A DNA stretch of 64,000 nt from a phage. The stretch is taken from the sequence record PZ386951.1; one strand, 5' to 3'. A model generated the notes under the pieces. That model did not search any database and was not told the origin of the DNA. It saw only the letters and a program-made list of their open reading frames with translations. Each line of letters opens with the position of its first letter. Within the stretch, counting starts at the first letter, position 1. Shown here in pieces: positions 24,531 to 33,616 of this stretch. A program made the position numbers and the translations under genes.

Positions 24531-24583
24531 CCTCATGTTATGTCAGTAAGACTACTATAACACAACACGAGGGGCTTGTAAAC
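24531..24583 (-). promoter_or_regulatory. early promoter plus stem-loop cassette (PeSL-like), copy 1
   Basis: minus-strand GTTTAC, 17 nt spacer, TATAGT; inverted repeat CCTCATGTT/AACACGAGG encloses the -10; 51 of 53 nt identical to 39508-39559. Confidence 0.55.
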
Positions 24584-26640
24584 TACATTTTGAACTTTTT
24601 AGACATTCCGTTAATGTTAACCAAAGAAGCTAAGATTTGAGAAACTTCGTTTTCCTCTTCTTTTGATTCTTCTACAAGGAATTGATTAAATCCAGTCATT
24701 GGACGAACTTCACCAGTTTCCATTAGATGGTCGCCATCATATACTGATTCCTCTAATTGTTCAGAAGGAGGAACGATTGTACCTTCGATTAGATACTTGT
24801 TATAAGCAGTTTCTTTCATAAAGTACGTACTTACTTTATTAATCTTCAGTAAAATTCCACGCGGTAGAATAACTTCAGCTTCTGATGGAAATCCTGATAA
24901 ATGACCTGGAACAATAACTTTGATTCGCTCAGCTCCTTTAATTACCATACCCACGCTAGTTTCAGCATCTTCATTAGCATATGTAGAATGACTACCCATA
25001 TGCATCAAATCTTCTGCATCAACGGAACCTTCTACTTCGCCAGAAAACGCTGCACCGGAATCATCTAGAGCCATATAGTTTTTACCATGCTCACCGAAGA
25101 TATTTGGTTTAAGCGATGTGGATACGAAGTTCTTGAAATAGAACATTTTGTTTTCAATGTTATGACGCAAAGTTTTAAATGTAACTTCTTGTCCACGGTA
25201 AAGTGTAGTTCCTGGAGGAAGAACTGAACCTTTAGCGAATGCAGAATCAAGCGTCTCAATATGTTTAATAGCTCGTTCCATATATTCTTCACGGGTAGAA
25301 TCTGGTTTACCCAAAAGGAACGAGTTCATTTCAACATATGAATCTGCACAATAATCTTCAATTACATCAGATTCAGCTTGAGTTAATCCTTTTGGAGTTA
25401 CTTCGGTGCTTGCGTATTCATATGCCTGGGCAGCAGATTCATTAATCAATTTATAAATGCCATTCATGACAAATTGAATAATAGCTGTCTTTTCATCTGG
25501 CGTGGCTTTAGAACCTTTAACTAAATCATTAATAATTTTCTTAATAACATCAAAGCTATTAGAAATATTAATGTCAGCAAGATCGCTTAAAATTTTATCA
25601 GTTTTATAATCAAAGAATTCTTTATTCTTTAAATATTCTTGAGAACCTTGATATGTTATATCGCTCTGCAACTTGATAGATGGATCACGTAAACGCGCAT
25701 GGGCTAATGCAATATGATTTCGGAAGTTTTCTAGTTCATAATCGCTAGATTTAAAACGAGAAGCACTCCTCATACCACCGATAGCTCCTTTGCTGAAGTT
25801 TGAACCAATCTGGATAACGCCAGAGTTCATCGGACCTTCTGCTTTATATACCGGAACTTTAGATTCAAACTCTTGATATTTCTTAGCAGCGAAGCTATCA
25901 CCCTGAAGTGAAGCATCAACAGTAGAATATTGAGCTTGTGCTGCTAATCGACGACTAATTTTAGTTTTCTGAATAACAGCTTGATCCGTACGCTTATCAT
26001 TTTCTTGTGCAATAGAAGCAGCAACAGCAACAGCTTTAGGAACAGCATTACCTGTTTTAACGTCTACATAAACATCACCAACCTTTGATTCAACTTTTGT
26101 GAATAACTCAGTTGAAATAGGAGGTACACCTGGAATGTCTTCTAAATTGGCATTTTTACGGTAAACCATAATATATGCATACTTTTTATCATAGTCCCAG
26201 ATTTCCTTTAAAAGAACATATCGACCTGCTCCTTTAGTACGTACTAAACGGTCAGCAATAACTTGCATTTGACGAGCAGCGCCATTTGTTTTACTTTTTA
26301 GTACGCGGAATAAGCATGCATCAATTTTATACTGCTTCATTGTTTGAAGAGCAGTATCAAAAACAGCATTAATGACGCCAATTGGATTTCCACCCAAGTT
26401 TCTAAGCTTAACCAGCGATAATTTCTCGTTGACACCTATCATTACGATATGCATCATTTTGTCGCCCGGCTTAACGTTTTTATTTGTATCACCGCCAGAG
26501 GTGTATGTACAAAATCTAAATCCAGGAAGAACGATTTCTTCACCGGCTTGAATAGCAAAAATTTGTGGTATTTTATGCTTAGGATTTAAGTTAACAACCG
26601 GCGCCGAAGCGCCGTCAAATAATTCTGTAATAAGTTCCAT
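24583..26640 (-). CDS. Alt-like ADP-ribosyltransferase paralog
   Basis: 685 aa; N-terminus MELITELFD and C-terminal ART motifs YRGQ, FVSTSL, SEAEVILPRG shared with the adjacent alt; central region divergent. Confidence 0.8.
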   Translation of the reverse strand: MELITELFDGASAPVVNLNPKHKIPQIFAIQAGEEIVLPGFRFCTYTSGGDTNKNVKPGDKMMHIVMIGVNEKLSLVKLRNLGGNPIGVINAVFDTALQTMKQYKIDACLFRVLKSKTNGAARQMQVIADRLVRTKGAGRYVLLKEIWDYDKKYAYIMVYRKNANLEDIPGVPPISTELFTKVESKVGDVYVDVKTGNAVPKAVAVAASIAQENDKRTDQAVIQKTKISRRLAAQAQYSTVDASLQGDSFAAKKYQEFESKVPVYKAEGPMNSGVIQIGSNFSKGAIGGMRSASRFKSSDYELENFRNHIALAHARLRDPSIKLQSDITYQGSQEYLKNKEFFDYKTDKILSDLADINISNSFDVIKKIINDLVKGSKATPDEKTAIIQFVMNGIYKLINESAAQAYEYASTEVTPKGLTQAESDVIEDYCADSYVEMNSFLLGKPDSTREEYMERAIKHIETLDSAFAKGSVLPPGTTLYRGQEVTFKTLRHNIENKMFYFKNFVSTSLKPNIFGEHGKNYMALDDSGAAFSGEVEGSVDAEDLMHMGSHSTYANEDAETSVGMVIKGAERIKVIVPGHLSGFPSEAEVILPRGILLKINKVSTYFMKETAYNKYLIEGTIVPPSEQLEESVYDGDHLMETGEVRPMTGFNQFLVEESKEEENEVSQILASLVNINGMSKKFKM

Positions 26641-26643
26641 GAT

Positions 26644-28740
26644 TTATCCTTGAACGAACTTGTAAGGCATGTTTGTAATATCTATGCAAGACGCAATAAT
26701 TCCGAGAGATGATTCTACTTTCTGTTTAACATTTGATGAAACAAATGATGCAAAGTCAACTCTGTCTTCTATTTCAATATCACCTGTCATTGCAACTACT
26801 TCGCCGGTTTCCATTAAATGGTCTCCGTCATAGATTACCGATTCGGTGAGCTCTTCCGTGGTCATAACTTCAGCTTGAATGAGTTTTGTATTATTAGACG
26901 TGGTTCCGTCATTATTAGAAGCATCAGTTATTTTATTAACTTTGACCATCAATCCACGCGGTAGAATAACTTCAGCTTCTGTTGCTATTCCGAGACTTCC
27001 TGGATATACAACATTAACTTTATGAGCTCCATCAATTGCCCATCCTATTTGAACTTTAACGTATTCAGGATTTTCTTTATACGCTCTTATTTCGTTTGGA
27101 TTAATAGTTATTCCTTCTTCATTTTTATCAACTGTTAATTCATTGCGAGCTTCTGGTTCTAAAAGACCAATACCAGCATGTGTGATTCCAAAACGTCCAA
27201 AAATGATAGGAGTTAAAGAAGTAGATACAAAATTTCTGAAGTAGAACACTTTATTTTTAACTAACGCTTCATATATAGGAGCAGTCATACTTTGAGCACG
27301 ATAAACTGTAATGCCTTCTGGTATACGGTCACCATTTTCAAAAGCTGAATCTAAGTTATTTATAGCAGATTCAATTTCTTTTTCACTCATTACATCGTAT
27401 CGTTCTGGATTGTAACGACCTAAAAGAAGATTATTAATGTCTGTATATCCTGAACCGCAATATTCTCTAATGCCACGCTTTTGTGATGGAGTATATTTAG
27501 AACCATCGCGGGCAATAGTAATATCAATCATTGGACCGGCACCAATTCCAGAAAAACTGTAAATCATTCGTTTGAGGAATTTAGTTTTTGCTGCGTTCCA
27601 GGAATTTTTAGTTATTTCTTCCCAGACTTCGTCTGGTTGCCCTTTACGAGTTTTATTATGTTTATCAAGCCAATTATCTTTATATTCTTCAAAGAATTTA
27701 TTAACAGCTGCTGCGTATTTCTCTAAACATTTTATTGAAGTAGTTGGTTCATTTTTGATTGCGTTAAAAATTACATCTTTAATTTTTTCTGAAACTTCAT
27801 CAACCTCACTTTTTGAAAAGAATTTATAGTCATAGTGAAGTTCATTCGCAGTTCCTTCGGCAATAATTTTTGCTGCCTTAGTTTTAGAAGCTAATGAATT
27901 AATTCCAAGCTTCATTTCTTCTGCTTCGGGAATTAAAGGAGCGTCAGCAGGTTTATTTAATTCTGCTGCTGAAGCCTCAAATTTTTGAAATATCGGCGTT
28001 TCAAATCTAGAAGATTCCAACGACTGACTTTGTGCAATTGCTCTACGGGAAATTTTAACTTTAACGATTACCGCTTGGTCAGAACGTTTATCATTTTCTT
28101 GCGCAATAGATGCTGCAATTGCCTCATTTTTAGTTACTTGGGCTCCAGTATCTTTATTGATATAAACATCACCGACCTTCGATTCAACTTTAGCAAAGAG
28201 CTCGGTACTAATTTCCGGAACTCCTGGAATGTCTTCTAGTGATACATTTTTGCGATGTATAAGAATATATGCATACTTTTTGTCGTAATCCCAGAGTTCC
28301 TTGAGAAGGACGTATCTGCCACCTGAACGACTACGGATAAGTCTATCAGCAATAACTTGAATTTGTCGAGCTTGGCCAGCAGTTTTAGACTTAAGAATAC
28401 GAAGCATACAAGCATCAATTTTATACTGACGCATCGTTTGCATTGCAACAGTAAAAACTGAATTGATATAATTAATTGGGCTTGGACCAAGACCTTTTAA
28501 TTTAGCAATTGAACCTTTAGCAGTTAATGTAAAAGGAACAATATGCATCATTTTATCGCCCATCTTTAAATCGCGATTAGTATCACCTCCAGATGTATAG
28601 GTACATAAACGAAAGCCTGGTTGTTCAATTGCGTCATCAACATGAACTGAAAAAATTTGTGGTATTTTCTTCTTTGGATTTAAGTTTGTAATCGGAAGAG
28701 TAGTATCTTCGTCAAATAATTCTGTAATGAGTTCCATCAT
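26644..28740 (-). CDS. alt: Alt ADP-ribosyltransferase (packaged, injected with DNA)
   Basis: 698 aa; MMELITELFDEDTTLPITNL matches T4 Alt as recalled; R-S-EXE motifs YRAQ, FVSTSL, TEAEVILPRG. Confidence 0.88.
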   Translation of the reverse strand: MMELITELFDEDTTLPITNLNPKKKIPQIFSVHVDDAIEQPGFRLCTYTSGGDTNRDLKMGDKMMHIVPFTLTAKGSIAKLKGLGPSPINYINSVFTVAMQTMRQYKIDACMLRILKSKTAGQARQIQVIADRLIRSRSGGRYVLLKELWDYDKKYAYILIHRKNVSLEDIPGVPEISTELFAKVESKVGDVYINKDTGAQVTKNEAIAASIAQENDKRSDQAVIVKVKISRRAIAQSQSLESSRFETPIFQKFEASAAELNKPADAPLIPEAEEMKLGINSLASKTKAAKIIAEGTANELHYDYKFFSKSEVDEVSEKIKDVIFNAIKNEPTTSIKCLEKYAAAVNKFFEEYKDNWLDKHNKTRKGQPDEVWEEITKNSWNAAKTKFLKRMIYSFSGIGAGPMIDITIARDGSKYTPSQKRGIREYCGSGYTDINNLLLGRYNPERYDVMSEKEIESAINNLDSAFENGDRIPEGITVYRAQSMTAPIYEALVKNKVFYFRNFVSTSLTPIIFGRFGITHAGIGLLEPEARNELTVDKNEEGITINPNEIRAYKENPEYVKVQIGWAIDGAHKVNVVYPGSLGIATEAEVILPRGLMVKVNKITDASNNDGTTSNNTKLIQAEVMTTEELTESVIYDGDHLMETGEVVAMTGDIEIEDRVDFASFVSSNVKQKVESSLGIIASCIDITNMPYKFVQG

Positions 28741-30438: not shown

Positions 30439-30704
30439 TGTTCATCCTTTAGAGTTTGGTTTACAGCTCTATTATAAATCAATTCATCATTAAGCTCAGG
30501 CAAAGACCTATGATATGTAGTTCTAACTTTATTTCCTTGCATCCAGTGCTTGACGTAAATGAAACCTTGTTCTACGCATTTTTTAAAAATTCGTTCGTCT
30601 TTTTGAGCTCGGAATTCTGGATTGCATCTAAAAAATTGATTTACGTGACCGTAATCACGTGTAGTATTACCTTCATTTTCATAAATAGTGTGAACAACAA
30701 ACAT
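30435..30704 (-). CDS. hypothetical protein (30.1 position)
   Basis: 89 aa with ATG start; operon packing. Confidence 0.55.
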   Translation of the reverse strand: MFVVHTIYENEGNTTRDYGHVNQFFRCNPEFRAQKDERIFKKCVEQGFIYVKHWMQGNKVRTTYHRSLPELNDELIYNRAVNQTLKDEQ

Positions 30705-31564
30705 TAGAATGCTCCTTGGAAAATATTATCACCACTACCACTAGTAAGTCTATTAAAATACCCTGAGTCGCCAGGCTTAATATAACTCCACGTATGGAAT
30801 GGATGGAATGGATTCTGATATGAGTGTGTATAATATGGATGATATGGATTATAAGGATTAAATCCAGGAGTTCTCCAAGTAGTGTTCCAACGAAAAGAAT
30901 CGTTTTTAATCATCTTTTCAATTACATCTTTTATAGCTTTTTCACTATCAAAACTTTCTTTATTTTCCTTCGATGGAAAAAGCTTATTCTCTACATCATT
31001 CCATGTATAAACTCGCTGTGCAGTTTTTGGAATACTGTCACGCTCTCCTCGAGCCATCCAATAAACAGGAACATTTAATATTTCACTCGCGTGATCGCAG
31101 TGGTGAGCGAGATCGTCAATATAACAAATTACGTTATATTTTTCTTTTGCCTTTTTGAACAGCTCTTCTTTTGAAGAATCATGACCACACATCAGTACTT
31201 CTGAGAAGGCACCAGGAAAAAGAGCATTCAAATTAAATTGACGATTCAGCAGAGCGTCAATAGAATCACCCAATGCTGTAACAGCTACAAAATTATAATC
31301 TTCTTTTAATTTGTTAATTACACACAGGGCATCTTTATATGGAGACAAATAACGAATAAAATCTGAACGATTATACTTTTCGATTAATTTAACACCAAGT
31401 TCTTCATCACAGTTAAAGAGTTTACCAGGAGAAATAAATTTTTCGTCCTGAATCATTTTTAAAATATGTTCTAATGGAAGATTATATTTCTGAGCAAAAT
31501 AAGGAAGGCCTGATTGCCAGCTTAAACATACTCCATCAATATCAGTTAAAATAGTAGGCTTCAT
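30704..31564 (-). CDS. HAD-like hydrolase with Pro/Tyr/His-rich C-terminal tail (30.2 position)
   Basis: 286 aa; N-terminal ILTDIDGVCL resembles HAD motif I; C-terminal NPYNPYHPYYTHSYQNPFHPFHTW low-complexity tail. Confidence 0.6.
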   Translation of the reverse strand: MKPTILTDIDGVCLSWQSGLPYFAQKYNLPLEHILKMIQDEKFISPGKLFNCDEELGVKLIEKYNRSDFIRYLSPYKDALCVINKLKEDYNFVAVTALGDSIDALLNRQFNLNALFPGAFSEVLMCGHDSSKEELFKKAKEKYNVICYIDDLAHHCDHASEILNVPVYWMARGERDSIPKTAQRVYTWNDVENKLFPSKENKESFDSEKAIKDVIEKMIKNDSFRWNTTWRTPGFNPYNPYHPYYTHSYQNPFHPFHTWSYIKPGDSGYFNRLTSGSGDNIFQGAF

Positions 31565-32019
31565 AGAGAGTCTCTTAATAGGTTTAACACATCAATAAAT
31601 TCAGCTTCGGTTAGTATTGTATCATCTTTTGTTAGACCACTAGCCATGCTGTGCTTCAAAACTTTTCCTTTTGAGGCTTGTAAGGCATCACGAAACCCCT
31701 TGTTTTGAATCGCTGCTTCAAAATATGCATTTGTGTATAATTCTTTCCACGCTGTGGAGTATCTTGAAAACGGAACTCCAAGCCAGAAGAGGGTCCCACG
31801 GTCCTGAGCTCTAGCATAAGACCTTCCAGCTTGTTGGGCGGCAAGCCCGGATAACCCAAATACACGACGTTGTTGTTCAACATTTTTCACCTTGCATCCT
31901 TGGAGGAATCCTTCAAGACCTCCAAATTGAATACCATCCATGACGAAAGGCCATTGGGCAAAATTACTTAATGCGCATGATGGCCATCTAAAATTGCTTC
32001 TAATCTCTAACTCAGACAT
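31561..32019 (-). CDS. NADAR / YbiA-like (DUF1768) protein (30.3 position)
   Basis: 152 aa from ATG 32019 (track starts at a TTG at 32025); motif LSNFAQWPF matches the FSNFA-WP signature of YbiA/NADAR proteins. Confidence 0.7.
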   Translation of the reverse strand: MSELEIRSNFRWPSCALSNFAQWPFVMDGIQFGGLEGFLQGCKVKNVEQQRRVFGLSGLAAQQAGRSYARAQDRGTLFWLGVPFSRYSTAWKELYTNAYFEAAIQNKGFRDALQASKGKVLKHSMASGLTKDDTILTEAEFIDVLNLLRDSL

Positions 32020-32218
32020 TTTCAATACTTATAATTTCAACATCAGCCCAATGACCATAGCAAGGAAGACGAAATTCAACTGGCCAGTTAGGGTCCTTTT
32101 CTAATATAATAGACTTAACTTGTGGTTCTTCATGTTCATCAGTATATGGATTTTTATCTGTTACTTTATATGTGACCTTAATGTACTGAATTCCAAAAAT
32201 CTTATTAATTATATTCAT
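32012..32218 (-). CDS. hypothetical protein
   Basis: 68 aa with ATG start. Confidence 0.5.
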   Translation of the reverse strand: MNIINKIFGIQYIKVTYKVTDKNPYTDEHEEPQVKSIILEKDPNWPVEFRLPCYGHWADVEIISIENV

Positions 32219-33173: not shown

Positions 33174-33506
33174 TTATTTTACTACTTTCCAGTGCTGCAT
33201 GTCAAGTTTACCAACTTTTTTCATCTTCTCAATTAAGCGTTCGGCACGTTGGCGAGCTGTAACATAATACCATTCACCCAATTCATTTTGTTCAATTTTT
33301 CCAACGATTACCGTATTCAATTCATAAATCCAACCAGTAAAGAAATTATGAACTTGAATTGTAAAGGTGAAATCTGTTCCCATGCCTTCTGTTGTTTCTA
33401 CTTCAATAATATCACCTTCAACTGCCATTAAGAACCACATAGTTTCATCATATTTACCATTGAAGCATTTAGTTTTAACTGCAGCGTTCAGATTAATCGT
33501 TTTCAT
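33174..33506 (-). CDS. hypothetical protein (30.8 position)
   Basis: 110 aa with ATG start. Confidence 0.55.
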   Translation of the reverse strand: MKTINLNAAVKTKCFNGKYDETMWFLMAVEGDIIEVETTEGMGTDFTFTIQVHNFFTGWIYELNTVIVGKIEQNELGEWYYVTARQRAERLIEKMKKVGKLDMQHWKVVK

Positions 33507-33563: not shown

Positions 33564-33592
33564 AACTTTATGCAATCTTTGGAAAATAAAAA

Positions 33593-33612
33593 AGGACTCC
33601 CGAAGGAGTCCT
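33593..33612. terminator. hairpin AGGACTCC-CGAA-GGAGTCCT
   Basis: perfect 8 bp inverted repeat just downstream of the small basic ORF stop. Confidence 0.5.
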
Positions 33613-33616
33613 CAAC

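Follow-up and report, generated by a model that had tools for sequence, protein, structure and literature searches.

Identification of the gene

A phage sequence of 64,000 nucleotides (record PZ386951.1; the whole stretch is indicated below as the window) contains, upstream of two Alt-type ADP-ribosyltransferase genes, a short gene whose product had been regarded in a first-pass annotation as a NADAR/YbiA-like enzyme, devoted either to the phage's own ADP-ribosylation or to the neutralization of host toxins such as DarT.

The limits of the gene, the 152 aa length of its product and the presence of the motif LSNFAQWPF had all been correctly given, and the coding strand, which had not been indicated, is the minus strand (Table 1). 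The reading frame is opened by an ATG at 32019 and its product begins with MSELEIRSNFRWPSCALSNFAQWPFVMDG. An in-frame TTG, located two codons upstream of the ATG, takes the mechanically defined ORF to 32025; the same TTG is found in T4, where the annotated start of gene 30.3 is the ATG.

Comparison of the 1.6-kb region surrounding the gene with phage sequences produced matches in 666 records, the best of them from Tequatrovirus at about 98% identity. The phage is T4-like (Tequatrovirus). The gene order 30.4-30.3-30.2-30.1-ligase (gene 30) is common to the window and to the T4 RefSeq record, in which 30.3, 459 nt in length and labelled 'hypothetical protein', is located between 30.4 and 30.2. 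The protein from the window is identical to T4 gp30.3 (NP_049816) at 149 out of 152 positions (98%), in a gap-free alignment, and the three substitutions, I53V, P89T and I125M, do not affect any residue described as catalytic. At the DNA level the identity is 97%, also without gaps: 14 differences are found in 459 nt, 10 of them synonymous and 4 non-synonymous, two of the latter within one codon. The match to Pfam family PF08010 (E=1.2e-69), the protein identity to T4 and the prevalence of synonymous changes establish the ORF as a genuine one. The gene is a near-identical orthologue of T4 30.3, already known and published: DarTG1 resistance of T-even phages was mapped to T4 gp30.3, which was renamed AdfN (anti-DarT factor NADAR) by Johannesman et al. 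(Nat Commun 2025, PMC11825919). The name adfN is used hereafter.

The window adds one more functional-looking adfN allele, and no new biology. Its value is rather in annotation: the T4 RefSeq record and the close relatives among the matches listed, out of 666, still report a 'hypothetical protein', while Pfam-based pipelines report 'Phage_30_3', and the NADAR link stays hidden.

Table 1. Features of the adfN region and of the alt genes. Positions are those of the window; residue numbers refer to the 152 aa product of adfN.
Feature	Position	Strand	Description
adfN / gene 30.3 CDS	31561..32019	-	152 codons plus TGA stop; phage-type NADAR domain, no extensions
LSNFAQWPF motif, residues 17-25	31945..31971	-	Pairs with FSNFAAWPI of YbiA; S-N-F core invariant in the family
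Glu36 codon (GAA)	31912..31914	-	Catalytic residue; 64/64 relatives
Lys43 codon (AAG)	31891..31893	-	ADP-ribose-contacting residue; 62/64 relatives
His123 codon	31651..31653	-	End of the last beta-strand (strand 120-123 of the model); invariant, 64/64
C-terminal alpha-helix, residues 138-151	31567..31608	-	Present in the model; intact
Gene 30.4	32012..32218	-	68 aa; 3' end overlaps the start of adfN by 8 nt
Gene 30.2	30704..31564	-	286 aa (278 in T4); ATG overlaps the stop of adfN (ATGA)
Alt-type ORF	26644-28740	-	698 aa, 71% identical to T4 Alt; 2.8 kb downstream of adfN
Alt-type ORF	24583-26640	-	685 aa, 41% identical to T4 Alt; 4.9 kb downstream of adfN

Assignment to the NADAR superfamily

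The Pfam family matched by the product, PF08010 (Phage_30_3, 'Bacteriophage protein GP30.3'), is covered from position 1 to 138 of its 138 profile positions, with a score of 233 bits against a gathering cut-off of 36. The protein, 152 aa in length and devoid of any extra domain, is limited to the core. The first-pass annotation had recommended a search for the Pfam NADAR family, PF08719; taken literally, such a check would look negative, as the single product gives no match to PF08719 in Pfam at E<=1. Matches were similarly absent in NCBIfam, PADLOC and the PDB (single-sequence phmmer), and only a family of 'unknown function' was matched in PHROGs. The link to NADAR therefore rests on family-level or structural evidence.

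At the family level, a large-database search provided 104 relatives, all belonging to PF08010 and several of them named 'YbiA (DUF1768 family)' by JGI; one (P0086) matches both PF08010 and PF08719. Among the 64 full-length gp30.3 relatives collected in alignment A1, eight match PF08719 individually, with a best E of 1.5e-7. The profile built on A1 matches E. coli YbiA (2b3w) with E=0.0043, in an alignment where LSNF falls opposite FSNF, E36 opposite the Glu of SEHYFQ, and K43 opposite the Lys of QKF. The PF08719 matches of relatives and the match of the family profile to YbiA place PF08010 within the NADAR superfamily, as its phage branch.

At the structural level, a confident AlphaFold2 model was obtained from A1 (pLDDT 93.5, pTM 0.88), in which the YbiA fold, an alpha-helical core flanked by small beta-sheets, is present. 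A Foldseek comparison of the model against the PDB gave, as the top three matches, YbiA, the Phytophthora NADAR with ADP-ribose (8bau) and the Geobacter NADAR (8bat); beyond these three NADAR structures, no PDB match with an E-value <3 was found. By these results, the fold of the adfN product is that of NADAR. The enzyme class originally proposed is supported by the model, the Foldseek matches, the family profile and the catalytic residues, and the unrelated fold, which had been indicated as contrary evidence, was not found.

The signature FSNFA-WP, on which the proposal was based, holds in part. The corresponding stretch of E. coli YbiA is indeed FSNFAAWP, and S18-N19-F20 is invariant in the family. 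'WP', instead, is not a family signature, W23 being found in 6 of the 64 members (48 have His) and P24 in 31; the likeness to YbiA at these two residues is particular to the T-even branch.

Residues defining the enzyme class

The roles of E36 and K43, catalytic Glu and ADP-ribose-contacting Lys respectively, were assigned in previous work (PMC11825919, PMC11543638). The mutations E36A and K43A each impair T4 AdfN, partial activity being retained in vivo (PMC11825919). The residue found in the last strand distinguishes the NADAR classes: His is the mark of the phage class, Glu is found in YbiA-type and Asp in DarG1-type enzymes (PMC11543638, PMC11125620).

E. coli YbiA (PDB 2B3W), the Phytophthora nicotianae NADAR with ADP-ribose (PDB 8BAU) and Pfam PF08719 share 13-20% identity with the window protein and carry the last-strand Glu, where the latter has His. 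In addition, YbiA-type and plain NADARs remove cytidine-ADP-ribose, whereas the T4 enzyme does not (PMC12945103), and the housekeeping role of YbiA in riboflavin metabolism sets it apart from AdfN. Membership among the YbiA-type NADARs (COG3236 riboflavin damage-control glycosidases) was considered and rejected, as the position that should be Glu is the invariant His123. The idea that AdfN is a metabolic N-glycosidase of this type, clearing reactive intermediates of the riboflavin pathway as E. coli YbiA and the plant COG3236 protein do, is hardly credible: besides the replacement of the defining Glu by His in 64/64 relatives, the T4 cluster is closest to DarG1-type NADARs in the published phylogeny (PMC11825919), and the retention of adfN is accounted for by a DarTG1-specific phenotype (PMC11825919; bioRxiv 10.1101/2025.11.20.689424).

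Differences are also found with DarG1, the NADAR antitoxin of DarTG1 (Geobacter/Trichlorobacter lovleyi NADAR, PDB 8BAT; E. coli C7 NADAR). DarG1 is encoded beside the DarT1 toxin, whereas adfN has 30.2 and 30.4 as neighbors; it carries an N-terminal extension (219 aa in the 8bat chain), in contrast to the core-only window protein, and Asp in the last strand instead of His123. In uninfected cells the T4 enzyme is no substitute for DarG1 (PMC11825919, PMC11125620). PADLOC reported no defence system at adfN, and the gene does not classify as a DarG1 antitoxin. The closest likeness is to T4 AdfN itself, which agrees with the window protein in length, in neighbors (30.4 upstream, 30.2 overlapping downstream), in E36, K43 and H123 and in the C-terminal helix. 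AdfN(Bas32) and AdfN(Bas60), NADARs of T5-like and Vequintavirinae phages, are likewise phage-borne orphan enzymes countering DarTG1; on the other hand, they belong to other NADAR clades, independently acquired, and are active without any T-even-specific factor (PMC11825919).

The C-terminal helix is lost in the inactive, frameshifted allele of RB69, and a truncation of AdfN copying this natural frameshift lowers activity (PMC11825919). In the window the frame is open to residue 152, without the RB69-type frameshift at nt 411, and the 3'-terminal 65 nt do not differ from T4.

In other T-even phages (P0007, P0013, P0016, P0017 and P0048, e.g. SV76, UGJNEcP4, vB_Eco_NR1 and vB_EcoM-RPN226) gp30.3 is called only as fragments of 83-120 aa, in some cases joined to a different Pfam family (PF11097, PF06019). 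Either adfN is naturally truncated or frameshifted in these phages, as in RB69, or the fragments are annotation artefacts; if truly RB69-like, sensitivity to DarTG1 is predicted for the phages that carry them.

Proposed function

The gene is very probably an adfN orthologue whose product, a minimal, core-only NADAR N-glycosidase, frees phage DNA of the ADP-ribose added by DarT1. According to this scheme, infection activates the host toxin DarT1, which ADP-ribosylates guanines in phage DNA and blocks replication; AdfN hydrolyses the N-glycosidic bond between ribose and guanine, releasing ADP-ribose and restoring clean DNA, and in this way acts as an 'orphan antitoxin', standing in for DarG1 of the host. 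On the side of the present analysis, the basis is given by orthology, synteny, the NADAR fold, the presence of E36, K43 and H123 and the intact C-terminal helix.

The rest of the basis comes by analogy from experiments on the T4 protein, 98% identical, which would extend to the window product. In vitro, T4 gp30.3 hydrolyses guanine-ADP-ribose in DNA, but not thymine-ADP-ribose (PMC11125620), and does not remove cytidine-ADP-ribose (PMC12945103); purified AdfN strips ADP-ribose from DNA modified by DarT1 (PMC11825919). Deletion mutants of T2 and T4 fail to plate on DarTG1 hosts, ectopic expression of AdfN is sufficient to rescue RB69, and DarTG2 is not countered (all in PMC11825919). In an independent transposon screen, 30.3/adfN turned out to be dispensable on K-12 and essential in the presence of DarTG1 (bioRxiv 10.1101/2025.11.20.689424). 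The suggestion of a counter-defence against DarT, already advanced in the first-pass annotation, agrees well with a protein which removes guanine ADP-ribose from DNA and is required on DarTG1 hosts (PMC11825919, PMC11125620, PMC12945103, bioRxiv 10.1101/2025.11.20.689424). More generally, the gene illustrates that enzymes of the kind used by hosts as antitoxins can also be encoded by a lytic phage, to undo DNA ADP-ribosylation, as shown experimentally for T4 in 2024-2025.

As E36, K43 and H123 are kept, together with the complete C-terminal helix, and as the T2 allele, for which a requirement was demonstrated as well, has the same 98% identity to T4 (PMC11825919), the window allele, with its I53V, P89T and I125M substitutions, is inferred from its sequence to be functional and as active as that of T4.

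In the Methods of PMC11125620 the T4 NADAR construct is described as 'gp30.3; residues 1-208', against the 152 aa of both T4 gp30.3 and the window protein; the figure is possibly a typo or refers to a tagged construct.

A further role, added to the removal of ADP-ribose from DNA rather than replacing it, would be the processing of guanine-ADP-ribosylated RNA, or of the products of further guanine-specific defence transferases. In vitro, every NADAR family clears guanine-ADP-ribose from both RNA and DNA, and so does the T4 enzyme (PMC12945103); the possibility of RNA or of other transferases was raised by the authors of PMC11825919, and members of the gp30.3 family occur widely, in phage-like contigs of diverse kinds. 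No such further defence system has been linked to adfN, though, and T4 AdfN does not act on thymine- or cytidine-ADP-ribose (PMC11125620, PMC12945103), so that this extension is considered unlikely.

The alt genes and ADP-ribosylation by the phage

Two Alt-type genes do lie nearby, as previously pointed out, both of them full-length, on the same strand as adfN and downstream of it in the direction of transcription. Their proximity invites the alternative that AdfN tunes or reverses the ADP-ribosylation carried out by transferases of the phage itself (the pair of Alt paralogues, or ModA/ModB), rather than acting upon a host system. This alternative is very improbable. The spacing between adfN and alt is the same in T4, and is a matter of ordinary synteny; in five other phage-like contexts, containing distant gp30.3 homologues, no neighbor of the ADP-ribosyltransferase family is found within 6 kb in precomputed Pfam matches. 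A functional linkage to Alt, deduced from the 2.8-kb distance, was accordingly rejected, the arrangement reflecting T4 gene order, which is not kept in distant relatives. The chemistry also differs. Alt, ModA and ModB modify arginine in proteins, and ModB also attaches RNA. These arginine targets contrast with the base-ribose N-glycosidic bonds cleaved by every NADAR tested, the T4 enzyme being restricted to guanine (PMC11125620, PMC12945103). Finally, T4 can do without adfN on E. coli K-12 and needs it only where DarTG1 is present (bioRxiv 10.1101/2025.11.20.689424).

The alt genes differ in organization from those of T4, which contains one alt and the short remnants alt.-1 and alt.-2 of an old duplication, whereas two full-length copies are found in tandem in the window. 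The copy adjacent to the adfN side (26644-28740) departs from T4 Alt mainly at residues ~270-560, the ends being nearly identical.

In a 308-kb phage-like contig, about 2.6 kb separate a distant gp30.3 homologue from genes for a NUDIX hydrolase and a Thg1-like protein (L002 9115-11294), and a PRPP-synthetase-like gene is found 6 kb away from P0086, the homologue matching both Pfam families (L005 1-22). These neighbors could represent other phage functions related to NAD or ADP-ribose, or be a coincidence.

The T-even-specific component and gene 30.2

In uninfected E. coli the toxicity of DarT1 is not rescued by T4 AdfN, and non-T-even phages are rescued only partly (PMC11825919, PMC11125620), which implies that the mechanism includes a T-even-specific component. 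Full activity of T4 AdfN is found only during T-even infection, DNA hypermodification not being the cause (PMC11825919).

Position alone makes 30.2 the only concrete candidate for such a helper. From the ATGA overlap, 30.2 is predicted to be translationally coupled to adfN. Its product contains two HAD-like motifs, DIDGV (residues 9-13) and YIDD (near 148-151), and a C-terminal tail rich in Pro, Tyr, His and Asn (…FNPYNPYHPYYTHSYQNPFHPFHTW…). No significant match was found for it in Pfam, NCBIfam, PHROGs or the PDB, where the only lead, a 5'(3')-deoxyribonucleotidase with E=1.1, fell short of significance. It may be imagined that 30.2, a gene particular to T-even phages whose product may be a HAD-like phosphatase or nucleotidase, is the missing factor, and that the pair forms a two-part module for ADP-ribose removal and disposal, whose components would be made together via the overlap; the chances of this are slim. 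Beside distant gp30.3 homologues, the adjacent ORFs in the two contigs mentioned above have no similarity to 30.2, and a HAD-type Pfam neighbor is found in none of the five distant contexts.

Overlapping frame and transcription unit

An internal, out-of-frame ORF of 75 aa, corresponding to 30.3', is intact within adfN (31656-31883, minus strand) and identical to T4 at 70 of 75 positions; the RefSeq T4 record annotates it as 'internal translation within gene 30.3'. In the region of overlap, the frame of 30.3 has 4 synonymous and 3 non-synonymous changes relative to T4, and that of 30.3' has 2 and 5, respectively. These counts, a very small sample, do not point to purifying selection acting on 30.3'.

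The overlaps connecting 30.4, adfN and 30.2 indicate that adfN is part of a tightly packed string of co-directional genes, forming one transcription unit. A scan for promoter and terminator consensus elements gave counts no higher than chance, with 18 sigma-70 sites against 17.6 expected, and so lends no support to the early-operon placement of the first-pass annotation. On the minus strand, an 11/12 match to the sigma-70 consensus (TTGACA-18-TAAAAT) is found at 33176-33205, just upstream of 30.7, and a strong terminator-like hairpin, with a 9-bp stem (GAGGACTCC…GGAGTCCTT) followed by a T-run, at 33592-33613, located 3' of a 30.9-like ORF. Although promoter-like sites overall do not exceed chance frequency, these two elements could be the bounds of the adfN transcription unit.
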